Both the position numbers and the translations under genes were made by a program. Below the pieces are notes generated by a model. The model did no database searches, was not told where the DNA came from, and saw only the letters and a list, made by a program, of their open reading frames with translations. Source: Paecilomyces variotii (taxonomy: Eukaryota). From it: a stretch of 64,000 nucleotides of DNA. This document shows, in pieces, positions 8,673 through 33,246 of the stretch. Where the stretch lies: assembly GCA_004022145.1 (NCBI GenBank), contig RCNU01000005.1. One strand, given 5' to 3'. Within the stretch, counting starts at the first letter, position 1. The number at the start of each line of letters is the position of its first letter.

Positions 8673-8699
8673 CCCAAGGCGACTTTAGGATACAATTGC

Positions 8700-9550: not shown

Positions 9551-12500
9551 TAACTAACTAGTTATGGTAGTCATCTCCTAGGTCAGCAGACCCCGCCCGC
9601 CTTCAGCGATTTTCTATGGAAATGAAATATCTCTGCTTAACACCAACTAGAATTCGAATTTCGGAATGGCTGGCCTTTTCACTTTATGCGCGGACAGTCT
9701 GCCTACATTCGGTCCCATAGCTTAGTCACCTACTAACGTGTCCCAGTAGGGAGAATCCTTTACTTGTCGCAAGGCAACCAGAGAGGATTTTCAGACGATT
9801 ATACAGAGTACATCTCCACTAACAGCACTATATACTGCCGAATTATTTACAGTTAGAAATCCTCCCTTGCGTGGTATTATCGTACCTATCCATATCCCCA
9901 TTCAGGGATTGCACTTTCATGAATAACCGACTAAGACTGAGCTGTCCGATATATGCGATTGAGTCGATCGCATCACAGCGATTCAACAGCATATCCTTAG
10001 GTTAAGAAACAATAAGATTTGTTGCCTTTACCCCTCTCCTTAGTCGGGTATAGCCAGCAATAGGTACGTATATGATGTAGCTCAGTGGCAAATCAAACAA
10101 AATACAACTCCTATTCGGGATACCATTTGAGTAAAAAGGTGAGTCTAGAATTTGATTCTCAGCAGAATAAGAGGAATCAGTTCTTCTTCCAAGAAATTAA
10201 CGACTGCAGGTCTGCAAGAGCAGAATCAAGGGATGAGGCTTTCTGAATCTCCTTTACTAGATTGTTCACATCATCTTCCTTCCCAGAACGCAGGATACTG
10301 ATTAAGTACATGGATATGTGTCGATAGCTTTCCATGGCTTTCTCTAAAGAAGCTGCAGCCCTAAGATACTCCTTCCGAGTCGTATTGCCACAAAGGTAGA
10401 CATCCATGCCCCTCAAACAGTGATTTCTATATTATTTCGCGTAGCTCCAGTGTTTCAAATATCGTTCAGCAGCGTGTCAAAGACCGGGCAGTGGGAGGAA
10501 TGGTCACATGGGAGAAGGTGATGGAAATATATAAAGCCTATCGTTCCCGCCGGTCTATCTGGAAACCATTGTCTTTTCTCTTCTCATAAATTTTACCCTA
10601 GCTCGACGCTTGGTGGTCTATCTGAACCTCAGAAGGCTTTCCAATTTCCATATTATTTTCGCATTATTGTGTTGCGTTGCGTTCCTCTACAAAGGTGACA
10701 TTATCATTGTGTGATCGTTAATTCCTTCCTTTGTTCCGCTGTTGGTTCCTATGATAGTTTTGCTCTCTTTGTACGACTGCCAACATGTAGATTCTTTATG
10801 TACCGTATTGTATATTGACTGTGTTTTTATCTGACCATATCATGCTTTATTCCATGTGCTGCCTTCCTGTTCCTAGCCTAGGCCTGCTGTCAAGTTGAAA
10901 CACCCTCTTCCTTGATCGACCTACTGGCAGGTCGAGGGTGCCGGCCCACCTTGCAAAATATCAAGTCGGTTGCCACCAGCCCTGCAGCCAGTTACCATAC
11001 TACTGTACCGCGTCCTGCTATGTGGTCCTCGGATTTCTTTCACTGGGTGTCATTTCGTGCTAGTCTGACCCTTAGGTGGCACATATGAGAACACGGCATG
11101 ATTGCTAGCAGTTCACTAGGGGTTCTGTAGGCTTCATGGCGTTGTCCTGGAATGTCGCCGCATTATCAGCTGGCCTTCTGCAAATGCGACGGCTCCTAGT
11201 GGTGATTTATGGTTTACGAAATACGGTGCCCAAGATTATGTACGATAAGGTCTTCATGTCTTCGATGGATATCAACCACAACCCTCCGCAAAAGAAAAGA
11301 GCCCAGACTGCCAAACTAGTAAGCGGACCTGGCAGGTTCACCTTTCCATTGGACCCGTTCTTTATTTCTTTATAAATACAGGCCGACCCAGTCTGACTTC
11401 AATACGAGGCTGGTGGATGGTGGATGGTACATGGCTCGACGGCCTATCGAAGTGGAATTCATTCATTTTGGCCAGGTCTGATGTTTCCTTTGTCGTTCGC
11501 TGAGTTATCATTCTGACATGGATCGGACATAACCTAGAATCCTAGTTTGACCTCCACATTTGCTAGTTAACACGTAATCAATATGGTAAATGATCCTAGT
11601 TTCTCAGTGGTCTTTCTTATTTATCCTCGAAACGGATCAGGCATACGTCTCTGAAAAGCTGAAGTATCCTGATGAGCATCGAGGGACAAATTAAAATTGG
11701 TAATAAATCAACGATAGTTAATTTCTTTCGTGTGGAGAGATCACTGACGCTTCTTAGAACGCATAGACTGCTGCCGTTGACGACTTCCGGATGAATCATC
11801 AAGAGCCGACCTGATCTCTGTCGCTAACGTGACTATGGAATTGATGCAGGGCTATGCAAAAGATGAGGGCGTATTAGGCGTGGACAGCCTCAATCGCTCG
11901 TCTTCCGGTTCCACTGCACTAGACTTCTTATCAACTACTACTTCTGCCAATTCAGTGGATGAGCTCAGAAAGGTATGTGCAGCGAAGCTTTCATTTAGGG
12001 CGCAGGCTGATGTTAAATAGCACCCTCTTGTCACGAAGACGAGTCCGTCTATAAAAGAGCTAATGTGGCTAGCTTGGTTTGCGCTCTATTCCGCACGCAC
12101 TTTCTGGTACTATAGTCCTTCGTTAGATGAGGTTGAATAATTGTACTCGGGATTTGCGGGGCTGTTGAGGTTAGTTCAGTGCTGGAGACCAGGCACTGAA
12201 GCACAGAATTGGCACCAGGGTCGAGCCGCTTATGGTTTGTCTGTTCTCTTTCTTCCCCCTTCATAATACCCTTGATAATGAATTCTGCTGTTCTATTCAG
12301 AGTGAAATAGAAAGAGATTTTAGTCGATTTGAATATCCTGGGCTTCACCAAATCTCATAAAACATGCTATTCTCTACTCACTTAGAGATCCCAGCTTTTC
12401 AATTATCGAGCTATATCTGTATGACAATAACCTCAATTCTTTAATTATATATGTTCGTATAGCAAGGACATATGTTGAGTACTCCCGTTCAGTTGCACTA

Positions 12501-13784
12501 CAGAAGGCGATGTCTAAGTGGAGGATCTTGGACGTCCCCAACACTTCAGTTGACACCCATATCTTGATAGAGCCAGAATTAATGAATGCAGTCAACTGTG
12601 TTCACAAAAGTAGAGCGTGCCTAAAAACTTATCACGTTTTACTGGTCTTGGAGAGATGACACAATAACGCTACCAAGACCTTCTCTTTTTGATGAATGAT
12701 GGTTTGTAGGTTCTATTCAACTGTGGGACCCATGTGATGAAAGGAGTGGTCGACAAGGCTAAACCGCTTTACACATTGTCTGTGACAGATTTGAGTATTT
12801 AGTGAGGCTTTTCATGGAAGGTTATTGCGACTATATTCGCGTTAATTTGTCTTGATAAAGACCGAAGTATTAACATAAGGCGTTGTCGATGCGAGCTGTA
12901 GAGGCATACTATGCCTATGGGCTCCGTAGGACTTTTTGTTAAACTCTGCTTTGACCGTCTAGCTTTGGCTATTCTTTGCCTAGTATAACCCTCTATACTC
13001 CGCAGGTTTCTTTGTGTCTGCCATAGCCAATGGCTCTATATGGACGTTAACCCTAAATAATAATACCACACTGCGCTCTGCGTAGCGTATCTTCTGCTTG
13101 TATTGAATATTCTCCTGGTCAGACTTCAAGAATCATGTCTTTTTAGGTATCATTTGGACTAAATCTACAGATTCCATTTTATCCTGTGAGGCATCGCATT
13201 GTACCATAAATATACCTAACTTATTTGGTATCTCATCAGAGCATCTACTATAGTAATGTAAGCATCGACAGTCTATTACATATGAAGACTCAAGCCCCCT
13301 GTTTACTGACTTCGTACTACTTCGGGCACCAGCATGCCTGTTAACACATCCTTGGTATCTTGTGATTGTATAGTTCTCCCAAAACCTTTGGAAACAATGT
13401 AGTAATTTCTTATTGTCCATGAATAATTTCTACGTACAAATCAATCATAATGACAGTGTGGCTGAAGTCTTGAGATCAGTATTTTTTTTTCTTTGCGTAA
13501 AGTGGCCCGCTAAAAGGTGTAGACTGAGCATAAACTCTTGCTTATTGGCTAGCAATTTTGCTCATATCTGTACTAGTCAGTGATCTAGCGAAACGACGGT
13601 GTATATAATAGCTATTCGCGCCCTTCTTTTCCTTCGGTCGAAGAAGTTCTGTTAAAGTTCATGATCTCTGGCCATACGAAATAATGAGTAAGCCTTCTAT
13701 GATTTTCTAAGTATATGTTTTACTGACAGTTAAGCAGTTAATGAAGCCCTTGACCAGAAGTCTAGTCCTTCTGAGGACACCAAG

Positions 13785-14351
13785 ATGTCTCCAAGAAGCG
13801 AGCGCGGATCATTCCAGCCCGCAACAGTAGACACCATCGGTTATTCCCCTGAGCACAGCGAACTGGAAAATTTGTATAGCAGATTGCATATAGGGAATGA
13901 GAGGTCTCATACCGTTAGGGAACCGGAACGAAACGAGGCCATTCTCAATGAGAGCTTTTGTGTAGACATGTACGATGCCCTACCGGAAACCGAAGCTCCC
14001 CTCGCCCACTACAAAAGAACTCTAGGTATGTATAAGAAGGACATGCATTTGAGCAGATTTCTAATACCCACATCAGAGTTCACTGGAAGGAGAAATTCCG
14101 TGGACTCCACAAACTCAGAAGCGACAACTATAAAGTGGAGTTCCGATTCGGAGATGATTATAGTGGACAAGACAGATACAACTCAGCTATCATCTACTTT
14201 ACATTCAGGGGGAGCAACAAGAACTATCTCATCCTTGGGTACAGCTTTGGCCATAAGAGAAGCTCCACGGATCTCTAAGCCGAAGACATACTCTTCAAAG
14301 CGTGAAAAATTGCGGAACTTGTTGTCTAAGGTGAGAAACCAAATAGGTTGA
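13785..14351 (+). CDS. Hypothetical protein (188-aa ORF; a short upstream exon near 13684 is possible)
   Basis: Long open frame in an otherwise stop-rich region. An intron-like TACTGAC..CAG sits just upstream. No family recognised. Confidence 0.45.
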   Translation: MSPRSERGSFQPATVDTIGYSPEHSELENLYSRLHIGNERSHTVREPERNEAILNESFCVDMYDALPETEAPLAHYKRTLGMYKKDMHLSRFLIPTSEFTGRRNSVDSTNSEATTIKWSSDSEMIIVDKTDTTQLSSTLHSGGATRTISSLGTALAIREAPRISKPKTYSSKREKLRNLLSKVRNQIG

Positions 14352-15063
14352 AGCTATAGGATTAGATTATGTAGAATCTTCATTCACACGTTAATCTAGG
14401 AACCGTCCGTACAGCTGCCATCTAAAGGCCTCGAAGCCGAGAAGAGCGATTGGAACTATATAACCGATGCTTAACTTAGACCATAATCTGATTATATTAA
14501 TCCATTATTTTATTGAAGACTCAGGGTTACTGTGCGCCCGTAGGAGAGCGATGGCATATAATACAGAAGAATACAATAGAATCAGTCCTGGACAAGTGCT
14601 ACACAGTAGATGTGCACATAACGCATCTGGGCAATGTACCTAATTCAGAAGCTATTCGCAACGTAGGTGTCTATTCAACCCCCTGCATGGGTTACATACG
14701 CGCAAAAGTTTGTGTTGTGCAGCAGCCAACCATGCCCGTCACTGCCACTTGACTCTCCTTTTTCTTTTGCATCCGGTCGCCCTCGCTGAATGTGAATTAG
14801 ATACCTGCATGTGATCCGATGAGTCTGAAAGACCTTTCTTTTCCTACGGGCACCAGTGGTGAGAATTTGGCATCGAGATCATGGTAGCATACAACTGCTC
14901 TGCGATATTCAGATTTATATCCGAACATAAACCTGATATTTTATCTGTCTGCAGGCTCCGAGGCCAAGACATTCCGTATAAATCCTACTTTACCTGTGGT
15001 GGGGGTATGTGGACGTCCTTATCGTGAACATATGTCATTATCGATGTCCTTGCAGCCTTTATA

Positions 15064-15306
15064 CAGAGTGTCCGGAAACTGGTGTCACCACTTATACTCT
15101 TTGATTGTTTCCGCAACCCTAAAGTGAAACAGCGCTAATCCCACTTGGGATATTTTATGTAATATTATATGTCAGTACAGGACGCGGCACTGGTCGGGAG
15201 AATCATTATTCCATTCCATTCCAAATACAACCTAGCTTGGTTTCACACTAGGGTTACTGAAACAATTAAAGAGTGTAAGTGGTGACACCGGTATCCGGAC
15301 ACTCTG
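15064..15306. mobile_element. Tc1/mariner-type MITE with ~65-bp TIRs and TA TSD
   Basis: TA|CAGAGTGTCCGGAAACTGGTGTCACCACTTATACTCTTTGATTGTTTC... and ...GAAACAATTAAAGAGTGTAAGTGGTGACACCGGTATCCGGACACTCTG|TA. Confidence 0.88.
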
Positions 15307-15626
15307 TAGCTGCGCCAACCCCCTGTGCTGTAGGACCTTGGATGGCTGAAGGCTCGTACTAGTGGGAGGTCTGGTAAATGGGATATCACCTGATGTGGCA
15401 CGAAGTGCATCAGACTTTCCATGTAACTCTTGAAGCAAGTTATGTACTAAAGCTCTCGACGGCTACCCAATGCACCATTAGCTGTTGTACCCTCGAATAT
15501 TGCACGGTGATATCCAAATTACTTTATACAGAAAGTCATCCCACTTCGATGCTTCTGCAATGGATTGCTCGGTTACTTATATTTCTTTCCTTTATCCCCA
15601 GCTATTAACCATAGCCCGAGAAATCA

Positions 15627-15990
15627 ATGAAAAATACCGCTCTTGAGCGCCTGGTACACATATTCCGATACCTTAATCGTATGTACTTGGGTGCTGCAGT
15701 GATAGATGCCATTACCATTGTTCTGAGGTCGGCTTGGATCCAGATGGCGTATGAGACTGATCTAACCAAGATCATGGTGTACGTTACACTTTTGGTTCGA
15801 GAAGGGACTGTTGACTCTGAGGAATGTGCTGAATTTTTCGCCCACGAAGCTGCTGAATAACTTCATTACTAGGTACTATGCGAAGCTCTCCCCTCTACTC
15901 AGAACAGTGGGTACGTTTTACAGAGTACGAGACGTGATAGCAAAGACACAAACCGTTTCAGACGGACGCCCTCTTGAAGACTAAAAAGGT
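15627..15990 (+). pseudogene. Possible degraded cullin-repeat-like fragment
   Basis: HIFRYLNRMYL and AEFFAHEAAE resemble cullin N-terminal repeat motifs. Stops follow. Confidence 0.3.
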
Positions 15991-16464
15991 CCATCTCGAG
16001 AAAGTCCCAAAATACGGTATAGTATCAGAGAGAAGAGGTTCTGTTCCAACGTGGGAGAGAAGAAAGAGATATGCGCATACAGAACGAAGGGTAGGATAAC
16101 TTGCATCCCTTCAGGGTAGACATACTCTACAATTAAGTACTAGGCCTTGCGTAACTCCGTATGTTCAAAAATACAAGACAGCTGGCGCCTATTGATAGCG
16201 CCTACAGATAATTCACTACAGACATGAAAAAGCAAATAACAGATTCATAGAATAGAAGTAAAGTCTTTGATAAAACTGGAAGAAAAGCGAAAACCTCATA
16301 ATTCTCATTGGGAGCGCGAACTTTGTGATCGACGTAGCGGCGGTTTCGCGTCAGTCGAAGGGGAAGATTTCAACACGCGTGAGTCGGTAATCAAACGCCC
16401 GCCACGGAAGGCCGCATGCCTTGATCAGAGCAGGGTTAAGTTGAGATTTTATAAGAGCTTTCCG

Positions 16465-17254
16465 ATAATCTTGCGCGTATGCTGGGAGAATTTGATACCG
16501 CTGATTATGATAAAATTTAGCTACTTGAGTGGGTGCAATACCAAGAGAAGACCAGCCTGTTCTTCTGAATCCTACCCTCTTGTCACACCTAGACTTGTCT
16601 ATATAAACAAGGCGATATAAGCAAAAGTCTGACATAAAATAAGAGTACGCGTTATACACTGTTGCAAAAACGGTGTTCGGGTGTTGCACTCTGTTTCTAC
16701 ATATGTGGGTCCGCTAAACCATATTTGATTAAAGTACATTAATTTATACCAATCAGACCACTTGCTTTCAATGACTAAGGATAATTCCATCCATTTATAG
16801 ACTAGAAGATCCATAACATTGAAACAAGAGTGTAGAACACCCAGACACCGTTTTTGCAACTTACTGTATAGATCTGCATTTTACTCTTTTAGTTTACCTG
16901 GCGGCCTTTTTTTAATTATCCTTCACGCTTCAGAGCGCGACTAATGCTGCATATAGTTACTTGCACCTGAAACTCGTCCCATAAGAAAATCGCCATCTCG
17001 TCAATATATAAATGGGGCTTCTCGATAAGATGATCACAGAGGGCTTTAACCATAATTGGAGTAAGTCTCCGGGGACGTCCACCCTTATTTGGGGGTGCCT
17101 TCATATTCCCAAACATATTAATGTTGGTGACAGACCTAGTGATAGTACTTGGATGACAGCCCGCCGCATTGGCAATCTGCGAGTAGGTAAGTTCATTGCT
17201 CATAATCATATTACGGATGAACTCCAGGGTCGATGGAGCTAGATTGGGGGCCAT
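16465..17254 (-). pseudogene. Decayed Tc1/IS630-like DDE transposase, interrupted by a MITE
   Basis: MAPNL..YSQIANAAGCHPSTI (HTH), GGRPRRLTP, KPHLYIDEMAIFLWDEF, SISRALK, then LVYIDKSRCDKRVGFRRTGWSSLG (normally VDESGCD) and RYQILPAYAQD. In-frame stops are present. Confidence 0.85.
16657..16866. mobile_element. Tc1/mariner-type MITE nested in the transposase
   Basis: Imperfect TIRs GTTGCAAAAACGGTGTTCGGGTGTT / AACACCCAGACACCGTTTTTGCAAC with TA on both sides. Removing it restores the transposase frame (NADLYNAYSYF). Confidence 0.8.
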
Positions 17255-18308
17255 CTTAATTGCCCTACGATGAAGGATGCGCTTGTACGGGGGGGGATAC
17301 GGGTATTGTAAGGTACCCTGAGTCATGAGGACGGCCCTTACCGTGCGATACAGAAACATGTAACAATGGCTGACGGACAATTACCAAAAAGGATTAGCGT
17401 GTTTCATATAAGGGCTCCTGAACGTGTCAGTATATAAACATTTGCACCACTTCTGCAACCAGCTGTACTGGTAACGGTGGGGCCACGAACAAGGGATGCG
17501 TGGTGAGAGGGGAGGTCACGTGCTAGCAAATGACGGCGTCGTTCGACACCGAAAATGGCAGCCCATTTGGTAAATCCGAATTGTTATGCAGACATAGTAG
17601 ACACTCAAACAAAAATTGCGAGTGTTCAACAAGTTGCACCATGCTGACTCCAAAAATGTTTTATGTTATAGCCTCAATATCAAGGAAAGGCCAAACTAGT
17701 CCAATCGACAAACTGTATTAGTGAAAAATTCTAGAAATTTCAGGTTGCCTCTGACTATACTGATCAAGGGTAATATGATGTAATTTGATCATAATGGGTA
17801 GACTCGTCCAGCATGGTTTTTCTTGAGTTGACAGAATGAAAACAGCTGCTATTGTTTTTGGTTCATCAGTTATGTGTTGAACACTCCCCTGGTCAACAAA
17901 TGAGGGCAAATGCATTGTTGGTGAGTTAACCCATTGCCCAACATTCCACAATCGAATACAGTGGAGTGGGTCCGGAAGGCAAATGCCCTCCCTCTTTGGC
18001 TGACCGGGTTGAACAATGATATTGGTGAACAGCCCAGTGTTTACAGACAAAATATCACCGAAATTTAATAGCAAAATAGCATTGACCAGAGATATGAACA
18101 TCATATTTTAGGCGTATCACCGAGTTCTCAGTACAAGAATTTCATTGAAGTGGCATCGTGGCACCTCTAGGTTGAGCGCCAGTAAAGTACAACATGTAGA
18201 CTGATGTTTTAAAAGTTGTTACAGAATACATTTTCGCTTAAAGTGTAAGCTCTGTCATTGGTGAAGCTTGGCGTTCCGCCTTTATGTAATTCCATTATAA
18301 CGTAACTA

Positions 18309-18713
18309 ACGTATTCCCCTGCGCAGCTCTGTATTCCATACAAATCCGCCCTTTTTACTACTTCAATATCTCAGTAACCAGAGATGGTAAAGATACAATA
18401 ATAAATATATAATATAGTATAGGCTAAATGAGGCTATTGATAACTTTTTGATTTTTTTCTTCTTAACTTTACTCTATAAAGTGAAAATATCAAAAATACA
18501 GCTGTAATATCAATACCGAAAGAAGTATTGTTAATATAAGCTTCTTTGCTTTATATATTAATGATTAAGTACTATTATATAATATTCTTAAATTTTGGAT
18601 TATTATAGCTTGTGGTTGCTGAGATATTCAAGTAGTAAAAAGGGCGGATTTGAATGAAATACAGAGCTGCGCAGGGTACTTGCATCCATGCGCAGGGTGC
18701 TTACCGAACACGT
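18309..18713. mobile_element. MITE related to the 9142-9550 element, opposite orientation
   Basis: Inverted repeat CCTGCGCAGCTCTGTATTCCATACAAATCCGCCCTTTTTACTACTTCAATATCTCAGTAACCA / TGGTTGCTGAGATATTCAAGTAGTAAAAAGGGCGGATTTGAATGAAATACAGAGCTGCGCAGG. The AT-rich core aligns to the reverse complement of the 9.2-9.45 kb core. Confidence 0.8.
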
Positions 18714-18776
18714 TATTAGTTAACTATCTTTGATTGGTTATTAAGACCAATAGATGACTAAGGTCCTTAAGATTTA

Positions 18777-18860
18777 GGACCGCCGAAAGACCACGCAGGA
18801 CCGCCGGGGACCGCCAAAAGACCATGTGGGACCGTGCAAGGACCGCGAGTGACCGCCAAG
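18777..18860. repeat. Imperfect tandem array of GACCGC/GACCA units
   Basis: GGACCGCCGAAAGACCACGCAGGACCGCCGGGACCGCCAAAAGACCATGTGGGACCGTGCAAGGACCGCGAGTGACCGCC. Confidence 0.7.
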
Positions 18861-21317
18861 AAACTATCAAAACCTCATCGAACCTATCAGTTACCCATCA
18901 AGAACCCCCTCTAACCTCCTGCTAAGACCAGAAGCATTAATGGGGGTATACATGCGGGGAAGGGGTACCCAGGCCCTCACAGGAAAAGGGAAATGTACAA
19001 GAACAAGCAAAAGAAAAGAGAAATAAATAGTTACTTACCTACTGGTGCAGAGCGGACCTTTCCAACACAGCTGTCACCCAATTAATCCGCCCTCGGATTA
19101 GCGCTATCATACGAGGGCTACCTGTACCAGCCTCCTCCACAGCATTCAGCACCTGGAGGGGACTGATTAACAGGCCCTCGAGACCCTCTTCGTCAAGCAG
19201 GGCTATATCTTCCCGGGTCGACCGGATGGTGAGTCCGGCCGCGTGCAACGCCTGAAGGTAACCCGCAGGATATGTCATTTTTGCGATATCTACAGAAAGG
19301 CTATACGCCCGCGAGAGTGGGATAAAGCAACTATTTATATATGTATTGAATACCACTACTGACAAGCGAGGCGACCCCTGATCATCTAACACTGCCAGAT
19401 AGGGAAGGAAGTATCAGTGAATACAATGTCATTTGCCGCTTCTTCTCTTACAAATTATCCTACATCAAGTTTAACCACATAGCTTCTCGTCCTTATACTA
19501 TCTTTGTCCTAGCATATCCTCATTTTCTGTCATTTTGTGGCTTTATTCATATATGGCGAAGAAAAGTGGAGAAAATAAACATGAAAGGGTGTTTTAGGTA
19601 GTTATACCATCGGCTGGTTTCTTATATCGTCCTGCTAGCCGGTAGCTCATAAAACTGCTGTAGACCATTGTGCAGCCGCGCTTCAGCTTTCGCAGCTGCA
19701 CAGCCCGTCCACCATCGGGAGCAGATACCTATGGAAGGATATGTCACTGGATCTCGATAATGGTTGTAGTTGTACGCTGAGGAACGACGACCATTACAGC
19801 GCTCGCACCGAAGAGGCCCGGCTGTTATCCTCGTTTCAGTCGCTGGATAGAAAGGCTGGTCCCGCTCAGTTGGCAGCCTCGTGATGCTCTGTTTGTGTTC
19901 CTGTGTCTCCCAGGTAGTCGCGCAAGTTTTGTCTGTGGTACTGACAGCTGCATTTGAGGGAAGTAGAGATTTGCGCCTGAATTTTCCAAGTTAATGCTTC
20001 ATCGAAACCGTACAGGAAGTGACGGATTATACCTGCACCGAACCCAGAGCCATATACCATAAAAGAAGTGCATTGGTTAGGACAATCTAGATGATGAACC
20101 AGCACGTAAGATTGGCCTTTGACACAAGTGAATCTTGTTTTGAATTCAAAGTATGGGTTTTGTTTCAAATATAATCTTTAAGACACCTAGCACGGCAAGG
20201 CATAGCTGAAACAATTATCTATGGCCAAAAATATATTCCAAGATATGCAATAGGAGACAAGGGCGCTTCATGGTAGAGTGTTATAAATTATCTTAGGTAT
20301 CTGACCGGGCTGATATGATAGATCATCGGCGAGGTTAATATTTTTTGTTACATATGGCTGGAAAGTGCACGTAGATTTGCTCAGCTAACCATGAAGCCTA
20401 AAAAGTCATCATTCTTGCTGTTTAACCAACAGTGATTTAGTTAAATACAGATCTGAGATACTTGAATATTGGATCGTCAGGCTGAAATTGAACAGGTCAA
20501 CTTGGCCTGCCGTACCTGAAGCATTCAGTATCACGATTGGATGTATAGGTGACATTATAACGTGCAAACCTCAATAGTGTAGCATATTTCCAGGATTTGC
20601 TGAACCCTTCTCAGGATTGTGATATACTGAACATTCATAAAAGTTCCAAGTTTAATATAAATTTTCTGGTAAACTCAACCCCACCCTCATAGTTCTAGCG
20701 TGAAACCTAGCCAGGCATTCAGTAGGCACCAACCAGTTCCTCGTCCAGGCTTTGTCCCAGTATGCCATCCTTCTGCTTTTATCAAGGCCTGGATCATTGT
20801 TGTGGCCCTAAGGAAGAACCAAGTGTTGATCAATCAGTATCGGACTCAACTATTGGCTGACCGCAAGCCAACTGCGTTGGAATTCCCCACCACACTGTGC
20901 CATTAGCATGAGATTTAGACGAACGTCCCACTCAACAAAGGGTTTCATTGCAACAAGTTAACTGATTGGAGTGTCCATTGGGAGCTTTTCGGTGGAGCGT
21001 CCATGCGCAGCACTGGTACAGGGAATAATAAAGTACCAAAAAAGGTAGGAATCTGATATGAATGATGATCCACAAATGAATGACATGGGGCCAAGACATC
21101 CAATAAGTGAATAGATTGCGGTCGAGCAAAGAGCTCACTGCAAAAAAGGACCAAAAATGTCCACTGTCCTGTCGTATGTACCATACAGGCTTATTGGTCA
21201 TGGCAAGTAAGTGGAGCTATCAAATCACCGATGAATTGTTGGCCTCAACCACTATAACCAACTATAACCAACGCCGGTGAACGCAGTCGCCCAAGACTGA
21301 ACTTTACGAAAGCCACC

Positions 21318-22655
21318 ATGAGTGCCAAATACCCATATCATCCTCCATTTAAAAAATTTATAATCTCAACACCATATTTATCAAGAAATACTACTTCAGC
21401 ATATCAGCAAACACAGTGCCACATTCTCCCCCGCATTCCTGTCCCGATGAGGGCCAAAAAGCAGAGACAGCCTTTACAAAGAGCGACTGTGATCAAAACG
21501 GCCCAAGTTAAGCCAAAAGATTCACTTGGGTCCTTGGATAGAGGCGTCCTTATCAAAATACAGAAATGCCTAAGTCGAGCTCGCCATAAGAGTACCACCG
21601 AGTCAGAAGCCAAAGCCGCCCTTTTCGTTGCCCAGAAGCTGATGGCCCCATATAATGTCTCCCAAGCGGATCTAGTGACCAACAGTGATTATGGAAGCAA
21701 AGCTCAATATGGAGGAGTGAGCAAGGTGGAAATAATCAACGTTAAGAACCGTACCAGACGTGTGATTAAGAAGGCATTTGTGCACAAGTCGGCAAAGGCT
21801 ATGTGTACGTTCTTTGATTGCCAATGTTTTTCGACGGACTACGAAACATCCATTGCTTGGTCATTTTTTGGTATAGCGGAAAACACGGTCACAGCGGCAA
21901 TAGCGTTCGAAATGGCGCACAATAAGATCCTGGACTGGGCATGCTCCTATAAGGGCGGTTCGGCCACGTTCAGCTACCGCGTCGGAGTCGCTGATGGGCT
22001 CGTCTCCATGGCCAACTGTGAGAAGAAAATCGAACTCGAGGCGGCAAGAAAGAAAGAGTTAGATATAATAGCCGCCAAGGAACGGAAAGCGGGTATGGAA
22101 CGCGAGCGCAAACTTCAGAGGCTCCATAAAGGACCTTCACTGGCGTTAGACATTGGTGAATCAGATGGCCAGTCAGAGGACGAAATGCCTGGCTTCTTGG
22201 ACATAGACAGCATGTCCGACGAGTCTTACGGCTCTCCAGAGTCGATAGACAATCTCAATCTTAATACTAGAGGAGCACTGGCCGACTTTAATGAGAATGA
22301 TGAGAATGTGGTCGATCTCACGCGCAGCGTGGAAGTCAACGTTGACAAAATTATCAAGCGGGAGTCGCGCGAAACCCATGATTTTAACAGCATCCCTTCC
22401 CTTTCGGTGAAGCAGAACCCTTCAGATAACGATTCCTCGTCTGTTAAAAGCGAGGATATGTCGAACTCGCCGTGGATGTCCGAAACGCAGCTAGTACGTT
22501 TTCGCGCCACATCGGTGCAGGTTGCAGACGAATACCTCAATATCAAGCTGCGTATGGGAAAGACACGCACAGTGGTCACCCGCAATTACTCTGCTTATCG
22601 AGAAGGGTGGAAAGATAGTGAAAAGATTGATTTCCGTCCGCGCAGGTTGGAATAA
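21318..22655 (+). CDS. DUF2786-domain protein, intronless (true start may be 21447)
   Basis: IKIQKCLSRARHKSTTESEAKAALFVAQKLMAPYNVSQADL resembles the DUF2786 helical motif. It is followed by FFGIAENTVTAAIAFEM, SYRVGVADGL, a coiled coil, an acidic region and AYREGWKDSEKID. Confidence 0.75.
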   Translation: MSAKYPYHPPFKKFIISTPYLSRNTTSAYQQTQCHILPRIPVPMRAKKQRQPLQRATVIKTAQVKPKDSLGSLDRGVLIKIQKCLSRARHKSTTESEAKAALFVAQKLMAPYNVSQADLVTNSDYGSKAQYGGVSKVEIINVKNRTRRVIKKAFVHKSAKAMCTFFDCQCFSTDYETSIAWSFFGIAENTVTAAIAFEMAHNKILDWACSYKGGSATFSYRVGVADGLVSMANCEKKIELEAARKKELDIIAAKERKAGMERERKLQRLHKGPSLALDIGESDGQSEDEMPGFLDIDSMSDESYGSPESIDNLNLNTRGALADFNENDENVVDLTRSVEVNVDKIIKRESRETHDFNSIPSLSVKQNPSDNDSSSVKSEDMSNSPWMSETQLVRFRATSVQVADEYLNIKLRMGKTRTVVTRNYSAYREGWKDSEKIDFRPRRLE

Positions 22656-23619
22656 TCGTACATATTGAGCCCTCTGATCTGTGCCTTACCCAGCCAGAGT
22701 TCCAGCTCGTTAAATTCTCCTGTCCAGACTCTGGTGAGTTCCCTTTGCCATCATACTCGGATGTGTCAGTATGCGGCCGTTCCATACAGAATAAACAACA
22801 ATAGAATATGCAATGGTTGGTACACAGTCTCTGTTCTCCATAGACATCTTCGCTAGGAAGCTATGGTATTTTACCTTCAGTGACTGGCGACACCCGCAGG
22901 ATTGAGTAGTGCAGTAACCGGTTAATAGCTTTTCGCTTCTCCACTGAATTATTACAGGCGTGAGTTACGCTATATGCCCAATATATCACTACTGGATGGG
23001 AGCAATTAATGCTGCTTGTGGACTGATGTGGGGGATTGTAGGCAAATTAGATTCTAGTGAGAAAAGCTGTGGCTCAAAAGACTGGGATCAAAAAGCAGGC
23101 AAACAATCGCTTTCAAACAAGCTAACATTTTCCCTCCGTTGGTGCATCAACGTTGTACTTTAGCCCCATAATCCATATTACGTGAGAGTAAGACATAGTT
23201 CCCAGCTAGAATGAAAGGGATAGGAACGAAAGCTGTGTGAATGAAGTGCATCTGCGATGGGTTCTCGAGGGATCCGCTCACCTCCCGGTGGCATAAATTG
23301 TGATCGATTATTAATTCCCTTTCGTATACTCCAATAACATTCAGAAGTGCACATGATGTGGAGCCAAGTCAACAGTGCGGTAGTGATGGATCTATTGCAG
23401 CGTATAAAAAGGGATGGTACAGGTGCAGACACAACGAGTTGTTCCCATTAAACTAATATGGCTGGCACAACTAAATGAGGCTAGTAACATAAAATTCAAG
23501 ATATAAAAGCACTCAACTAACACTGTCGAACATCAAACTCTTCCAATCTTTGATACTCACACAAGAATTTTCTAAATCAATTCACGGCTACCGGTGGCGC
23601 ACTCCTTTGTTTCTCAAAT

Positions 23620-23999
23620 ATGCACAATAGATCGCCGTGCGCTCACACTCCAACCCAGGGTAAGTAGTATGGCTCCTCACCTTCCCCTTCAATGCTAAAT
23701 CGGTCATGACTATTATAGCGCCTTGCCTCACACAACGCATTCCAGAGCTGCTTGAGCAAGCGTATCGCGAAGCTTATCAATCTCACCAGCTCAATCGGGA
23801 AACTCTCGCGTGCAATGAACAACTAAACCGCGAATTGTCGAAGGTTCACAATGAAAACAGAGACTTACAGGCAAGGAATCAACGGCTTGAGTCCCAAAAT
23901 AGGGTGTTGATGTGGCAAATACAAAACCTCGAATGCCAGCCGATGCGCCTGCAACTTTCTTCCCATAGCGCCACTCCGGAAAAGGGGAAGTCGGCATAA
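23620..23999 (+). CDS. Small coiled-coil hypothetical protein, probably two exons
   Basis: ATG at 23620, GTAAGT..CTAA..TAG intron, heptad-like LNRELSKVHNENRDLQARNQRLESQNRVL. Confidence 0.45.
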
Positions 24000-25038
24000 T
24001 ATCATCTTTCAAGGTGCTTTTCTCAGACGGTCTTAGTGGAAGTAGCACAAGTCTAGTGATATTATAATATTCACATCAAGGCTCCCATTTCAACTATGAA
24101 TTCCAAAGCTATCAATCTATTCTAGGGCCACCTTCCAATGGTTGCTGTAGAGTAAACCCTCTGAGCATCCAACTTCAGAAGTGGTGACTGGGCTGTACTG
24201 GTTCAGATATTTCAAGACTACATGGTCATCTGTGTTGCTGTACTTAGCTCCCAGGGAAGAAGCGCCAATAAGGAGATATTATTATCTACACAGTAGAATA
24301 GCTTGCTTCTTATTATATGCATACCGCGGCGTACGAGATCTCTCAAGGAAAATGATTCGTAAATACCTTGAACAGAGAGTAAGGTTGCACGGCACAGAGT
24401 TTCAACCTTTCGTGAGAACAAAGGACCAGTTTCCGAATCTCAGGTGGAGAGGCGGGCGGGTAGACCCAACGAATGATTGAATCTCCCATTGATTACCTGC
24501 CCTCCAGAACCAATGCCTCTTTCCAACGTAACCCACTTGCTCCGCCGTCATTATGTACACGCTTTGCAGATCATCAATGTACTCCATGATCCTTTGAATA
24601 GCGTGCATTTCATGGGTCTATGGTCAGCTACAATTTATTCCAGTCCCGGGGCCACCTCACGATTTCTATGTGAACTCCATTTGCCAGATCTAGCTCTTTG
24701 TCTATGTCTGCTTATTACTAAGCCGTCCTGTTGCCAATGACATTCGGCGTTCTCGGTCCACCCACCCCATGTTGCCTTGCAACGAACTACCACATTCAAA
24801 AATCATCGATAAACAAGGGTCTCATTCCACTCTTGACAATAGTGTCAACAAACTCGCCATCGAGCGGGCGCGAACTGGTCGTACTTTCTCACCTTGGACC
24901 CAGAGTCTGCATGTCCCGTACGGTAAACTCAGATATTTAAAAGTCCAGTTGTCTGAAGGGACTCTTCCACACTCAACCAATCCCGATAGATCGGAAATGT
25001 GCACGACCTTCCACGACCAATTCATACGCCCTGCCCGT

Positions 25039-25940
25039 GATGGACATATTATCTCTATTGAATAAAGACGATGATCGCAATCCTTTCAACCCTCCCTCTA
25101 CCAGCCAGCAACGGCCGACCAGTAAGAGGAGGGATGCATTTCAGGGATGCAATCATGGCGTTTTCCCATCGTACCATACAAGTCTAGTGTCCCAAAGCGT
25201 GGCATCCATGCCTTCATCAGTACTATCTGATGTCAATTGGTCAGAGGCGTCTCGTGTTGCTGTTTTGTCTGAAATGCCCCGCCGATCTACCACAACGAGC
25301 AATGTGTGCGCAGTACATTCAAGGTGGTGGATCTCAGGAGTAACCTGCCGTCCCGCGGATGATGCTGCCATTATCTATCTATCTGAATCTATCCGGGGAT
25401 CTCCTAGAATAGCTATCCAGCTGGCTTTAGGACGAGGTTATAGGTTCACAGTCAGGAGAAGAGACATGCTGCATGGATATCAACCAGAAAGGTCCTGCTT
25501 GAACTGCCACTATGTGGAATACAACTTGAGGAGGGCAAGGTAGCAGTTAGTCAGCCATGCAACCCAGAGACCCTAAATGCTAACTATCGAGCAGATATCA
25601 AGGGTCCTCATTGAACACTACTCGGAAGGGGCTTGGCCCGAAGGCCTCCATTATCATTCCTCCGCCACGACAAGTTCGGCTTGGGGACACATTCTACTTT
25701 CCTCTGGTTCTCCAGGCTCGTGAAGATACTATTGAGTTGTCTGCGAGGCTGAAGATTGATGATATCGATTCCTCCTTGGACTTTAGCAAGACCCTGATAT
25801 TCCAAAAAACTTTCTTCCTTTTGACTCCTCTGGTGTTAAACCGAGCGGGGATTTGGAGCATCGTAATCTGCATTCAGAGTCAGGCTGAATCATTTTTCAT
25901 GAGTTTCGACGTTCATGTTGTGAATTTCAGCCCTGTGTAG
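25039..25940 (+). CDS. Hypothetical protein, probably two exons
   Basis: Adjacent same-strand ORFs (MDILSLLN..; ..IIIPPPRQVRLGDTFYFPLVL..) separated by a GT..GCTAAC..CAG intron-like segment near 25540-25594. Confidence 0.45.
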
Positions 25941-25962
25941 TACAGTACAACACAGCCTCTAG

Positions 25963-27458
25963 GACATGGCGTGATTTGGGGTGTTATGCGAGGGAGGTCC
26001 TAACGGTTCAAAATACTCGTCGTTTTACGCTAGGCTTTACATTATGTGAGCCCAACATGCGACTCTGGGAGTTCGACCGTGTCGGGGCAATGGCGTCGTC
26101 CTCTTTCGACATCAACAAGGATGGGCTCCAATTTGTTTCGGCCATGCTGGGTTTTCTTACGATGAACGATGAACAGTTAGGGTATGACCCAAGCATCATT
26201 TCTACATCTGACGAAAAAAAAGCTACATTGAGATTCAACGCGATGGACATTGCGAGCGTCTTATCCTTGAAGGGCTGATGAAGAGATCTGCATGCGTTGC
26301 TGGCAGAGCTACAACTTGCTGGAAAGCCCGTCGCGAAGGAGACAAGACAAATTCACCACTTGTTATCAAAGATTAATGGCAATATCCAAAGAGAGAAGGA
26401 GAGTGGAAACTTTTACAGGAAGCGACGGAGAAAGAGGTGGTTAATGTAACCAGATATTACTATCATGAACCGTTCGGGTGAATAGAGAAATCGACAATAT
26501 TCGCAACAATGTTCGGAAGAAGTTAGATGTAACGGAGTCCACGAACTTTTGACCAATGCGATATGAGCTGCTCTCAGCTGCAAGTGGCACAGCGGGAATA
26601 GAAAGAGCCGGTCGCTCCACAAGCACGACCAGCCAGAAAAGGTCATCTAGCCAAGCCGACGCAATACTACCGCCAAAGAAACGCCCTTGCCCAAGCTCGC
26701 CTTCCAAAGGTGTGCGTGATGCCAATATACAGGATAGGGTACATCGTCGATTTATTGTCGAAGATTATGACATACCCATATATAGAGCAAGCTCACGCGT
26801 CTCGCTACTACATGCACTTGAGAATTGCATAGAAGGTATGAGTTTTGTTCATGTGCTATAGTTCATCACTAATTATTGAAGGATATCAATCTTTGCATAT
26901 GAAAGCAGGGCTTTTACAGGGTGACATCTCGACTGGCAACCTGATCTTGAATGAAGACGTAGGGAATCCGTCATGGTCAGCGTTCCTCATCGACCTGGAT
27001 CTATCTATCGAGGAGCAACGAGAACGAGCATCTGGAGCTAGAGGGAAGACAGGAACGAGGGCATTCATGGCAATAGGTCTACTTCTGGGAGAGCAACATT
27101 TATTCAGGCATGACCTCGAATCTTTCTTTTGGGTACTCTTCTGGATATGTATTCACTACAACGGTCCAGACCAAGGGGTTGGGCCAACTGACTTAGATTG
27201 TTGGAACTATGAGGATGATGGAAAGCTGGCTCGATCTAAGCAAGGTATAGTTGCTGGCGAAGAGGATTTTCTTAAAATTGCAAGTGAACTGTTCTCACCA
27301 TACTATCAAGCATTGGTTCCTTGGGTCAATAGGTTACGCTGAGTGGTACAGTATTCCCGGGGGGTATGCGGAGAAAGAATGACGATACGCATCTTTATGG
27401 TCAGATGAAAAATACCCTTCAGGAAGCGGTTAGTGATCCGAAAGTGTTAGCACCATAG
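25963..27458 (+). pseudogene. Fungal-type protein kinase (FunK1 / Pkinase_fungal) pseudogene, 5'-truncated
   Basis: RRFTLGFTLC..MRLWEFDRVG, LGYDPSI, VAGRATTCWKA, LVIKD*WQYP (stop at 26374), LLQGDISTGNL, FLIDLDLS, TGTRAFMAIGLL, HDLESFFWVLFWICI. Frameshift at an A-run near 26215. Confidence 0.88.
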
Positions 27459-28325
27459 GTAATATTTAATCAGCGAGGCATTATCATTTAGTAAAATAAT
27501 ACAGTTTTAACATTTTCATATTCAGATAGAATCAATGTGCTAGCTTATCAGCTTCTTTTCCATAAGCAATGTCCGTACTACTGCTGAACATTTTCTTAGT
27601 CATTCGAAAAACCCAGTGCTCAACCAAGCCACTAACTAACCTTTAAAGAGGACGCTAGATGTGTCAAAAGTTAGGCTTGACAATACCCATACACAGTATC
27701 TAGAAAACGTAATACAACCCGTAACAGAAATTTACAACCTGTATTTTTGGCACGTGAATTTCTTGTAACGTAATGCATGTTTTGTGGCGGTGCAATATTT
27801 TGTATTGGGAGGAAATATTATATACTGTAATATATTCATGTAAAGCATTCAGTCAAATGTGTTTCACTCCATTATGAAGTTGGTATCCAATGGAATCTTA
27901 CTTTACTCATAGGCCAGGTCAGATCCCATAGATTAAACAGTGTCATTTTTTATATGTACAGTATATTGGCCCGTCTTACTGGACTGTGTTATGCTTCCTA
28001 TTATTCCTTAGGCACTAGCTGTTTAAGTGCCTCGATTCTAACGCACCTGTTCGTGCTTCAGAGTACTTATCACGCATAGAGCATTAGCGCTTTCCCTTAG
28101 CATTATTTCAACTCTTTTCAAGCCCAGGGGAGAGTTCGGTGTCAATGTTATTGTATCTGCTTTCAGTTACTCAATACGTCTCCATTAGCAAAGCAAAACT
28201 TTATATACTAGGCGACAACTCTAGCGGCCACCAACACTACAAATCTTGTAAATGAAACTTGGTTTAAACAGCAAGCTTGTTCACCTATAAAGGTAATTAT
28301 ATACAATCTATCCATTTATATACTC

Positions 28326-31300
28326 TCACATAGGCTTCAATCGGGTCGAACGCCGCGATGGCGGTCGTATGACGGACCAACGTTTCCGAAGGGAAATCGC
28401 AGACCGAGCTGGGAATCGCTTTTGAAAGGCTGACGTTACCGCTTCGAGAGTCGCCAACTTCCGCATGAGTGTCTTCAGTAACTTGTCCTCTTCTTGACTG
28501 TAAGGCCTAGTTTTCCGACCTGAGGTTTGGAAGTCCGTAGATCTCTGGCAAGCCTTGGCCGCTTGCTCCTTAGCTTTAGCTCTTGTTATAGGCCCTGTTA
28601 GTCCCACGGCCTCCTTTATCCTGTCTTCGATAACATGCATATCTGAAGAGCTTTGCGTTGTGAAATCCGCTTCCTCTATTAGCTTCGATTCGTAGTTTGT
28701 CAAACTTAGTGCTGGCTTATCGTTCAGAGAAGTCGGAGACGGTGGAGCGTGTTCAATGGTTATGTTGTCCGTCTCTGGTACAGCCACACCTTGAGAATCC
28801 ACACCTCCTAGGGCTAGGTCTGCGAAGGGCTGTTGAAGCGGAGTATTACCCTCGATCTTCTCAGTAGCATAGTTGCTTTCCACATGCACCCCTGGACTGC
28901 GTGCATAGGGCTGTTCAGTTTCCTCACCCGGCTGGCACAAGAGAGCAGACGGCGTCTCTAGAATTCGTGGGTCGATGGGAACCACACCGAAAGTGGAGCT
29001 TGTTATTGAAGGGCTTGAGCAGCCGCTCAAGCCATCGGTACGATCAGGTGTGTCAAATGTGGCCGATCGAGCCTTCTGGCTGTTTTGGCTTACAACAGGC
29101 AAATCCAAGTTCCGGCAGTCAATAACGGCTTGCCAAGCCATTCCTTTAAGGCTCTCTTGATCCTTATCTTTCTCCTGAGCAGGGACAGACGTGATAGCCC
29201 TCGGACGCATTGCGGGGGGTTCCCAGAAAGTAATCTTCAGTTCTTTCGTATTAGTAGATGATGGTACGGAAGGTTTTTTGCCTTGCTTGCGCGGGCGTTT
29301 CTGCTGCATACAATGATCTCTGTCTGAAGTAGACTCCTCGTCCTGCATCGAGGACAATCGTTTCTTGTAGGCCTTCTTGGATCGCACACAAATGGTTTTG
29401 TGGTAATGGTGCACATCGCGAAGGTGTCGGCGGTAGTCCTGTTCCTCGGTAGCAATGTGGTTACAGGAAGGGTCAGCGCATTCCGATGGCCATGATTTCC
29501 GATCAACATGCTCCTCAAGATGCTCTCTCAGCTCTGGGCTTCGGTCAAAAGCTCTCATCCTGCAGGCCGCAGGAAGCCGGTCATCCCACATGCATTCAAT
29601 ACAGTATCCGGCACGGATGGTGGTATGGCGATACACCATCACCTCGTAGTGTTGGCTGGTCATCGAGGGGAGGTGTCCCGCACAATGCTCCTCAAACTCA
29701 GCACTCTTTCCATCATGGAAGGTGTAGCATTCCCAGCAATACTTGATCTGTTGAAGAGGAATGTGCAAGTTTCGAGCAGATTCTCGTTGAATACAAGAAT
29801 GGATGTGCCTGCTCCGCAAGGGCTTTTCCATGCTGTGGCATGTTAGTGGAGGATCAATATAGGGAAACAGTGGGCGGCTCACGGTTCCAATAATTTACGA
29901 CAGCTAGCAACGGGGCATCGCTTTTCCACAGGCTCCTCGCCCGGACGATAGACCACGTCAAAATCACGAAGACATTGGGTAAAGAGATCCTTCACCACAC
30001 TGGCTTTTTCGTCAAAAGAAAGTGGCTCGTTGGATGACATGACCGCCGCTAAACGGCCTAATTCAGGCATGAGCTTGCACAGCGCCTGCTTTTCTGCACT
30101 CTGCTCAATATGATCCGGGCGTTCGCGGCCCCTGGTCAGGATTTTCCAGTCCCGACGACTCTGGACCCATTGACTCTGGTATTTCTGCAACCTGCTCGAA
30201 GAGATCCTTCTCTTAAGGACGCTATATTCGCGCTTTGCTCTTCTGATGTCATCATCTGACTGTGCTTGCTGAATTTTCGCGGCTTTGGCGACCAAACACG
30301 GGTCTTCATCGACCTTCTCTTCCTCTTCTGTAGGTAACCGGCGAGGGAGGCCATTCTCGTGAAATCGGTCGTAGCCTTGAAAGTAGTCAATGTGAGTATG
30401 ATCTGCGGCTCGGCCTCGTAGAGCATTGAACACATCCACGCCGGAACAGTTGGCAAGATAGTCATTTCCGTACGTAGCTTTAGACCTATGCGTAAGAATT
30501 TGAGCCACGAGAGCCGAGGAGTATTTATCTGCGCGATAATTTAGCTAAGCTCTCATATCAGGTGAAAGAAAAGCATGAACCAACCTTGGACAGCTTTTCC
30601 TAGCTCGCGGCGCATCGCATGTACCGTTGCAGTAACAAAGTAGCCAGCATTGACAAGGATATTACGTAGACCCTCTTGATATCTCTCCTTAGTCAACGGC
30701 TCCTCACTAACCTTTTCGGCTGTGACGCGCCTTACAATACATCGGTCTTTGGCTTCATCATTCCATCTAAGGACCAGTTCGTCTTCTCCTTCGGGGATTC
30801 TTTGCTCAAAAATCTCCTCTGGCTTGGAGAACCCAAAGAGAGCATTATCTGCAAGAGCTAGTGCTAGGAGGAACAAGGCTCCTGAGTAGATAGGTTCATT
30901 GCAGTCCCAAATAGCAGTACCAAAGCTGTTCTCGTTAATGACCATTCCAAAGCTGGTGATGGTGATAGCTACATACACTGTATTCTCGGGGTCTTTGTTG
31001 TTCTTGACATACTGTTGGTCAAGCCGCCATCCGACCCTCCAAGGAGCATCATCGGTACGAAACAATACAAGCTCAATATTCTGGCTACTGTCAGCATTTG
31101 GAAGCTGAAGTGCAGGCATATTGGAATCCGTACTTTGTAACGAAGCCCCCGTCCGGCTCTGTCTGCTGATGCAGGTGTGAAAGAGGACACTCTGGCACCC
31201 GTGCATAGGAACTGAAGAGTAATGAAGTGAAATTGGACACGATACCTTCCAGGCATGAAGAATGGATCATCTGTTGCCCAGAAAGCGATCATGGCTCGCT

Positions 31301-31915
31301 CAAAGCTCGAAAGCTTGAAAGTGTGCTTCGGCCTTTTGATCACTGATAGGAACCCCTCTTGAACTAGATCATGCTCTATCCACTGCAATGATCAGATACA
31401 TGGCCCTCGAAAGGTGAATCTAACTCACGCTGTAGAGATCGGCCCGGTCATGGGGGGAAATCTCGTTCCCTGTCAGAAAATAGAAGCCTGGGACGAACTC
31501 TTGAGCCCAAATCAAAGTCGTGTCCTTGGTCGGTCGTCCATTTGGAGCAAGTCTGCCGTTAGTAGACTCAACATGCCACCGGATAAACTCTTTGAGTTCC
31601 TCTAGTGTTGGCGCCGGATGCCCATCTCCAACCTTATGGTCTTCAGGCATATCTTTCTCCTCCTGAAGAAATCTAACGAAGTCATGGTGAGAAGAACGAC
31701 TCCCTCTTAGAGTATATAGAAACTTACTCCTCATACCTCCGCACTTTCCCTGCATATCTCTTTTTCGTTTTTGGCGAAGCTCTACCCCTTGTCCTTTGGG
31801 CATCTTTCTGTTGATGAGCTTTCGCCTCATAGCCTCGCTGTTTACGGAGTTCACGGCGAGCTTTTCTTTTCTTTTCATCCTGCTCGGCCTTCAATGAAGA
31901 AGAGCGTATAGCCAT
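28326..31915 (-). CDS. Starship captain: DUF3435 tyrosine recombinase with C2H2-like zinc fingers and a C-terminal Myb/SANT-like domain (about 7 exons, roughly 1,090 aa)
   Basis: Candidate catalytic residues in order: CTGAR (R), YVKNNKD (K), TVHAMRR (HxxR), QILTH (H), GNDY (Y). Also FLLALALADNAL and VVYRPGEEP..CPV. Canonical introns (e.g. 31727-31673, 29882-29833) join the ORFs in frame. Confidence 0.92.
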
Positions 31916-32475
31916 TATCAACCGCTGAAATGTAGCTAAATAAATGAGTTTAGAAAGAGTACGAGAGAAACGATTGTAGAAGGCTGATGGGAAATGAGAT
32001 GAAAGTGAAATTGTCCTGGGCGAGTAGGGCATATTTATATTCGCAATTGAAGTGCGATACCTTTAGTTCCTTTTTAGCAATGACCCCTCATCACTTGCGC
32101 CAAATGCTGATCGAAGCTTCTTAGTGTCAGACATAGTGTGCGGTGACTGAAAAAGATTCCAGCTCTTGTCTTCGTGATGCCCTCAGATACATGCGGGTTG
32201 GATAGACTGGATCAATTAGTTTGTACACGGTTTAGAGAGCTTCTGTTGGTCACGTGAGTGATGACACAGAGAGGACTGGCATTGCCCCGGGATCACTCAC
32301 TGAGTTGAGCCAAAGCAATCCGGGAGCGACCGGAGCTGCGGTGCGTGCTCACTGAGCAATCAGTGAGTGGCCCGGAGCGAACACGGAGCACTCACGTGCT
32401 GCCCTCACAAAAGCGGCGGCATCCGAATCGGGTAACAGGACCCAACTCGCAGCAAAACAGTTCACTTATACACTA

Positions 32476-33246
32476 GTAAATGATGGATTACAAGCTCGCC
32501 AGGCGCTTCTTCCAAACAGCTCCGTATCGCCGCGGTTGGATACCATCAGGCTTCCAAATGTCGATCTTATCAGTCCCGAATTCGTTGATTCAATCATCAA
32601 ACACCATATCCCGCCTGGGGGTTTACAACTTCGAGATGCTACAGACAGCTCTGCTGCGAAGCTTTTGATGACCCCGATGCGGGATGCGGACATCAGAGGG
32701 CCGGCACTACGAGATGCTCATTCCAAAGCTGGCTCTTACCTAGCCTGGAGATTTCTGGCCGACCTCATTGGTCTTGAGGAAGTCACTATCCGCCATGTTC
32801 AAGGCAACAACACCATAGGTCACCGACTCCGTGGAGAAGAGAAGACGCTGATTGTGGCGTTGATGCGCGGCGGCGAGTCCATGGCTTTCGGCATCAACGA
32901 AGTCTTCCCGAAAGCTCAATTCTTGCATGCCAAAGAGCCGAATGATATCAAGCGACACCATCTGGAGGACAACGTAACCGTTATTCTGGTCGACTCTGTC
33001 ATTAACAATGGCAATACAGTTGTGAAGTTCGTGGAGTCCATCCGAGCCATCCATGCAATGATTCGCATCTTTGTTGTTGCTGGTGTAGTCCAGGACAAGG
33101 CAGTCTCGGGGTGTGGTCCCCTCAAGGCACTTGCGCGGACTGCTGAAATTACAGTGGTAGCTCTTCGACTTTCTAAGAACAAGTACACGGGTAGCGGTGG
33201 AACTGATACAGGCAATCGCTTGTTCAACACGGCTTACTTACCCTGA
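32476..33246 (+). pseudogene. 3' remnant of a uracil phosphoribosyltransferase-domain gene, 5'-truncated at the Starship junction
   Basis: LIVALMRGGESMAFG, VILVDSVINNG (PRPP-binding loop), GGTDTGNRLFNT. The frame extends upstream through NDGLQARQALLP with no in-frame ATG between the junction and the ORF's TTG start. Confidence 0.75.

Follow-up and report, generated by a model that had tools for sequence, protein, structure and literature searches.

Probable captain-proximal boundary of a giant Galactica-family Starship inside a kinase-HAD-UPRTase gene of Paecilomyces variotii

The described element closest to the locus considered here is Starship-2_Pvar of Paecilomyces variotii, placed at scaffold_5:146191-280470 with a length of 134,279 bp (Gluck-Thaler et al. 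2022, MBE supplement, PMC9156397). Its published entry gives the direct repeat as 'TATAA?', lists no TIR and carries the remark 'not clean ins' (PMC9156397). Published tables assign Starship-2_Pvar-Captain to fam07 and HEPHAESTUS_Pvar-Captain to fam02, family 7 being Galactica and family 2 Hephaestus (NAR 2024, Table 1). Another member of the Galactica family is Lamia of Aspergillus fumigatus, for which a target A(N)TAGT has been predicted (mBio 2025 Table 1, PMC12153272). Table S3 of the same study holds nine Lamia elements, with a direct repeat given for seven, six of those with 'tag', and the TIR tgaactgtttttctg(c) likewise given for seven of the nine (PMC12153272). Two further elements come from P. 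variotii itself. According to the accessible parts of its description, Hephaestus (PNAS 2023, PMC10104507) has a target TTAC(N7)A in which the A is required, shows short microhomology between its ends, leaves no footprint on excision and passes through a circular intermediate, and circularisation puts the 3' terminal sequence before the captain, raising its expression. Pegasus (bioRxiv 10.1101/2025.02.28.640899), as far as the accessible part of the preprint goes, measures 403.6 kb and has a palindromic target with a central CTAG (TACCTAGGTA).

The locus lies in a stretch of 64,000 nucleotides of P. variotii DNA (contig RCNU01000005.1), which we call the window. The best explanation of the combined evidence, to which we give a probability of roughly 0.9, is that a giant Galactica-family Starship has its captain-proximal (5') boundary at 32471-32476; it is colinear with the 134-kb Starship-2_Pvar and interrupts the gene for a kinase-HAD-UPRTase protein within its coding part, parting the first 420 codons from the last 257. 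Both the element and the rough position of its end have been published, and what follows is not a discovery in kind. The features on which the argument draws are:

1..28325, minus strand: element cargo, running off the left end of the window (from domains; order and spacing as in Starship-2_Pvar)
1-1389: cargo gene with DUF3723, running off the window
6633-8086: cargo gene for a ferric reductase (domains at 6633-7475)
21258-22655: cargo gene with DUF2786/DUF7168
26842-27342: cargo gene for a fungal protein kinase
28326..31915, minus strand: captain of about 1070 aa, a tyrosine recombinase (DUF3435) whose gene has several short introns (from Pfam on two exon ORFs and tblastn)
31916..32448, minus strand: non-coding subterminal stretch, from the captain ATG to the TIR-like motif (from the sequence)
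32449..32464, minus strand: TIR-like motif TGAACTGTTTTGCTGC, a 15/16 match to the Lamia TIR tgaactgtttttctgc
32465..32470, minus strand: spacer TATAAG between the overlap and the TIR-like motif (from the sequence and the offset to the published coordinates)
32471..32476, no strand: junction overlap, that is, direct-repeat or crossover region (from contigs of the runs X9 and X4)
32472..32477, minus strand: A-C-T-A-G-T, an instance of A(N)TAGT (from the sequence; motif from mBio 2025 Table 1)
32473..33246, plus strand: 3' remnant of the split gene, codons 421-677 and the stop, with the UPRTase domain whole (from Pfam, homologue searches and alignment to P0121)

Comparison of the window with the gene table published for Starship-2_Pvar revealed colinearity in order, strands and spacing across the captain-side 32 kb, with a constant offset of 248000. 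The shared order runs DUF3723, protein kinase, unknown gene, ferric reductase, DUF2786, fungal protein kinase and captain, the DUF3723 and ferric reductase genes being typical Starship accessory cargo. With this offset the published position 248532 corresponds to window position 532, the gene start 250919 to an ORF end at 2919, the DUF2786 gene at 269278-270823 to 21278-22823 and the captain model at 276247-280271 to 28247-32271. The published end, 280470, falls on window position 32470, the base just before the overlap, and the published 'TATAA' is window 32466-32470. Given the constant offset and the mapped end, the element is therefore a known one, the other end of which should lie about 101.8 kb to the left of the window; on these positional correspondences we take it to be the same as Starship-2_Pvar. 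Our reading departs from that publication, with its 'TATAA?' and no TIR, in having a CTAG(TG) overlap beside the TATAA, a Lamia-type TIR motif and a named interrupted gene. The main text of a 2025 bioRxiv survey of Paecilomyces does not name the element, and its tables may use a new name.

The captain stands first among the genes of the element and points into it, its minus-strand coding region opening with an ATG at 31915-31913 and closing with a stop at 28326. The distance from this ATG to 32476 is 561 bp (555-561 bp to the element end), which bears out the figure of about 560 bp in an earlier note on this DNA; the Hephaestus captain, according to the accessible parts of its description, stands 451 bp inside the 5' end. 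Six tblastn pieces of 63-501 aa each cover residues 1-1067 of P0244, the 1067-aa captain of Aspergillus parasiticus. Four of these pieces are 97, 100, 98 and 94% identical to it and the two that read into introns are 67% and 76% identical, with the only stops, two in number, falling in one of the intron-reading pieces. Overall the gene matches full-length captains of 1067-1092 aa. Four of six homologue tags could be located in the NAR 2024 supplement, ETB97 and CDV56 not being found among the entries listed, and the closest captain homologues so located (A. caelatus 166718, A. uvarum 321834 and 347115, and A. ellipticus 415712) are fam07 in four of four cases. By published assignment and colinearity, as distinct from a phylogeny, the captain is thus predicted to belong to family 7 (Galactica).

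The captain exons are 94-100% identical to A. parasiticus P0244 and 87-97% identical to A. caelatus P0241; identity of this order to Aspergillus proteins is much closer than the split between Paecilomyces and Aspergillus would suggest. Upstream of the captain, 75-225 bp in from the element end, is a cluster of four CACTCAC heptamers that alternate in orientation within 142 bp (32254-32395); they are four of 7 in the window, where 6.74 would be expected. The cluster makes up two perfect 10-bp inverted repeats, one nested in the other (32251-60 with 32389-98; 32294-303 with 32360-69), and as single-stranded DNA the region folds with a z of -2.45, 4 of 200 shuffles folding as well. This region could hold captain-binding or promoter elements.

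The junction itself was fixed by two independent public contigs, from run X9 for the element side and from run X4 for the host side. Public runs were searched with the query 30980-35479, one third of the words of which come from the element and two thirds from the flank. Word shares of about 1.0 (0.94-1.00) were obtained for X15-X17, labelled organism D, one of which may be the window's own source; shares of 0.67-0.68 for X18 and X19 (organism D) and for X1-X3 (food-fermentation metagenomes); and shares of 0.30-0.32 for X9-X12 (organism B), X13 and X14. These shares serve as a lead only, 0.68 being the value expected from the flank alone. Contigs of X18, X1, X9 and X4 were then compared with 24000-35500. 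Over this interval X18 yielded one 84-nt repeat contig and X1 no contig, giving no usable cover of the junction, and scans of the metagenomes returned 0 matches for the last 25 nt of the element and 0 for the first 30 nt of the flank.

Six pieces of X9, amounting to 8389 letters, show 0 differences from the window in this comparison, the identical part falling within 24000-32476. The last of them, a 5777-nt contig, is identical to the window over 27815-32476 and continues in letters unlike it (CACTGT...), the G at 32476 being the last base of the host reading that the element still shares. A copy of the element identical over the 8.4 kb compared thus abuts different DNA in another organism, and the same element occupies different genomic sites. 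X9 carries the label organism B and has a word share of 0.32, about what the element contributes to the query; the perfect identity of its element part next to other flanking DNA fits a recent horizontal transfer or a very recent transposition, bearing in mind that the organisms are coded and could be close relatives.

On the host side, X4 gave five longer pieces that together match 1941 letters of the flank apart from 2 differences, and it has nothing on the element; its label is organism A, whereas the runs containing the whole stretch are labelled organism D. Two short X4 contigs extend left past the junction, one beyond 32471 (with …GGCTG before it) and the other beyond 32473 (with …GCTGCG before it). 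Translated by hand in the frame of the gene, their loose ends read KSMDIRLLAA and KSMDIHLLAA, followed by the LVNDG... of the window, and the same KSMDI-LLAA stretch occurs in P0122 (KSMDIRLLAALANDG) and P0121 (KSMGIHLLAALVNDG), the nearest orthologues of the split gene. Since the loose ends continue the split gene in frame, they represent uninterrupted alleles, and supply an empty site for comparison; the setting of element against empty site applies to the 5' boundary, the far end lying outside the window.

With identity to the element reaching 32476, and host sequence picking up at 32471 in one variant and 32473 in the other, the overlap comes to CACTAG or CTAG. CACTAG (32471-32476; CTAGTG on the captain strand) is common to the captain-proximal end of the element and to one uninterrupted host allele, and CTAG (32473-32476) is what the element shares with the second host variant. 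On the captain strand the junction reads ...CCATCATTTA-CTAGTG-TATAAG-TGAACTGTTTTGCTGC... The element ends at or before 32476, the host resumes at 32471-32473, and uninterrupted alleles exist. The claim of the earlier note that a base-level junction between a Starship and its host lies inside a UPRTase-domain gene is thereby upheld, both by these contigs and by the abrupt break in homology described below.

The two X4 variants differ at 5 of 30 letters just left of the junction, giving an R and an H allele, and share one sequence to its right (32441-32502). This R/H difference recurs between P0121 and P0122, whose identity to the remnant is only 93-98%, and the split-gene locus seems unusually polymorphic.

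The site ACTAGT at 32472-32477 is a perfect 6-bp palindrome. It agrees with the target A(N)TAGT of Lamia, an element of the same captain family by published assignment, and the TIR-like motif with its 15/16 match sits 7-22 nt inside the element end. Lamia differs in genus and cargo, and here the overlap is set apart from the TIR-like motif by the 6 nt TATAAG. At the X9 junction, the one other available, the sequence reads G-C-TAGT; the A of A(N)TAGT is not conserved there and the match is partial across the two junctions. The partner end of the motif lies outside the window, within which no TIR partner or second terminal copy occurs at up to 3 mismatches. Among the entries listed in the NAR 2024 supplement, CTAGTG/CACTAG as a repeat returned nothing relevant, and no tRNA or 5S rDNA target is present in 31900-35600. 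The site resembles that of Pegasus, too, in being a palindrome with CTAG; from what the accessible part of the Pegasus preprint gives, the flanks differ, those here being TTA-CTAG-TGC.

A different target had been proposed in the earlier note, namely the TTAC seen on the captain strand, by analogy with Hephaestus. On this reading a Hephaestus-type captain would have targeted TTAC (GTAA on the plus strand, 32476-32479) and TTAC would be the direct repeat. The tetranucleotide does stand at the junction on the captain strand, and Hephaestus-family elements, according to the accessible parts of their description, use TTAC(N7)A and occur in the same genus. However, only its C (32476) is common to the element: the TTA (32477-32479) belongs to the host alone, and the X9 copy has GTG before that C. 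By hand reading, the base after TTAC(N7) is G and not A in both uninterrupted variants, so that the site departs from the Hephaestus target, and the captain of the colinear Starship-2_Pvar is of family 7 and not of family 2. Moreover, the TIR of Nebuchadnezzar, a Hephaestus-family element (gaggacctgtgaa), is not found at the element end, which bears the Lamia-type motif instead. The proposed target and the analogy both fail on these points; we regard a Hephaestus-type insertion as very improbable and the TTAC, which overlaps the site by one base, as coincidental.

The gene into which the Galactica-family element would have inserted codes, when intact, for a 677-aa protein with P-loop kinase, HAD and UPRTase domains, of which the window has residues 421-677 only. 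The ORF 32356-33246 carries a complete UPRTase domain (Pfam profile positions 2-206 of 206, E 6.6e-41). A homologue search among candidates of 140-448 aa returned 292 of 1289 proteins at E up to 0.001, many of them with a HAD domain before the UPRTase domain, and a search among longer proteins returned 1223 among 6212 candidates; the full-length form is of about 680-700 aa and combines a P-loop kinase (AAA_17) with HAD and UPRTase. The nearest orthologues are P0121 (677 aa, a Logan record) at 98% and P0122 (649 aa, an NCBI protein of Paecilomyces variotii) at 93%. From the L at 32473, which is L421 of P0121, the remnant is identical to this intact protein at 250 of 257 residues, whereas the 16 residues upstream in the same frame match it at 2 of 16; the break is therefore real and abrupt and not a gradual decay. 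Across the intact orthologues the similarity likewise begins abruptly, at 32471-32479, and homology to the left of 32470, which the earlier note had named as a finding that would speak against its junction, was not found. That note had placed the start of coding at 32476. The letters GTAA do stand at 32476-32479, the codons for V-N-D-G-L-Q-A-R-Q-A-L-L-P do run from 32476 in the frame of the ORF, and the break is there, but the host sequence starts 3-5 nt further left, at 32471 or 32473 according to the variant.

These observations also bear on two other readings of the UPRTase fragment beside the captain, as cargo or as a pseudogene truncated long ago, with the true end of the element elsewhere. 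The remnant is without an in-frame ATG before 32668, and this, together with the published remark 'not clean ins', is what such a reading has in its favor. Against it, the X9 copy of the element stops at 32476 and is without the fragment, the reverse of the UPRTase fragment inside a related element that the earlier note had thought would tell against it, and in the X4 contigs the coding sequence carries straight on at exactly 32471 or 32473. Finally, 250 of the remnant's 257 residues agree with an intact orthologue and no stop interrupts it, so that the split is recent and lies exactly at the element end. We therefore hold a pseudogene or cargo origin of the fragment to be highly improbable. 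That the break is an intron or an assembly join, with the gene continuing upstream in the window, is extremely improbable: an AG at 32475-32476 and GT-starting hexamers upstream would suit an intron, but tblastn with five shorter homologues and P0121 gives no other significant match in the 64 kb (other matches at E >= 0.31), the kinase and HAD parts therefore do not lie behind an intron in the window, the DNA next to the left is the putative captain promoter region and the captain gene, and X15-X17, one of which may be the window's source, hold 0.94-1.00 of the sampled words spanning the junction.

The frame of the remnant stays open for 40 codons into the element (32356-32475), as far as a stop at 32353-32355, with no ATG in this stretch. 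For a protein to be made from the remnant, translation would need to begin at 32668, within the UPRTase domain, or at a codon other than ATG. A 53-nt stretch at 33331-33384 matches short high-depth contigs in two runs with 5 differences (depth 181 in X18; 19.8 in X4, where its neighbours have about 5). This stretch, for which neither Rfam nor a tRNA search gave a match, is probably a dispersed repeat of small size. Also on the host side, 2.4 kb beyond the split gene to the right, is an NLR-type gene (35636-39846, minus strand) that combines a PigL_N-like N-terminus with NACHT/NPHP3_N and many WD40 repeats. The splitting of the UPRTase gene is not described in the literature searched, a silence that is weak evidence for its being absent from print; the tables of the 2025 Paecilomyces survey may already include the junction.

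If the boundary at 32471-32476 is that of a Galactica-family Starship, a mechanism may be sketched by analogy with the experiments on Hephaestus and Pegasus. We infer from these that the captain tyrosine recombinase would join the two ends of the element into a circle, the short junction sequence of which may recombine with the matching A-C-TAGT in the gene. The shared letters CTAG(TG) would be left at the junction, excision would leave no footprint, and the 555 bp from the end to the captain ATG would hold the captain promoter. The 5' part of the split gene would lie at the far end of the element beside a matching short repeat, as the earlier note predicted. The accessible parts of the Starship papers draw a parallel with bacterial integrative and conjugative elements, in which a tyrosine integrase recombines the core of a circular intermediate with a chromosomal core and can split a gene; the present case differs in its eukaryotic host, a far larger element and a recombinase of the DUF3435 type.

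A broader proposal can be made tentatively, at odds that we place slightly short of even. Galactica-family Starships of two genera, Lamia and the element in a Paecilomyces-type host, may share a terminal motif TGAACTGTTTT[T/G]CTGC and a target core A-N-TAGT. In that case the way in which the captain recognises DNA would be conserved between genera and could serve to predict where insertion occurs, and the copy identical over 8.4 kb, which occupies another site in an organism with another label, would mean that the element is mobile now and has recently crossed between species.

The additions made here to a known element are small: a refined junction, a target motif and the identity of the split gene. 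A 6-bp junction interval drawn from two independent contigs replaces a doubtful published boundary ('TATAA?', 'not clean ins'). For readings made from the letters of a genome alone there is a caution, in that a TTAC at the end of a Starship does not mean that the element is Hephaestus-like; the tetranucleotide is not diagnostic here because it overlaps the motif of a different family by one base. For the organism, a conserved three-domain kinase-HAD-UPRTase gene is knocked out in carriers of the element, which makes carriers and non-carriers natural mutants for this protein. For the family, the terminal motif and target core in common with Lamia of A. fumigatus would provide a testable rule for the choice of targets by Galactica-family Starships.
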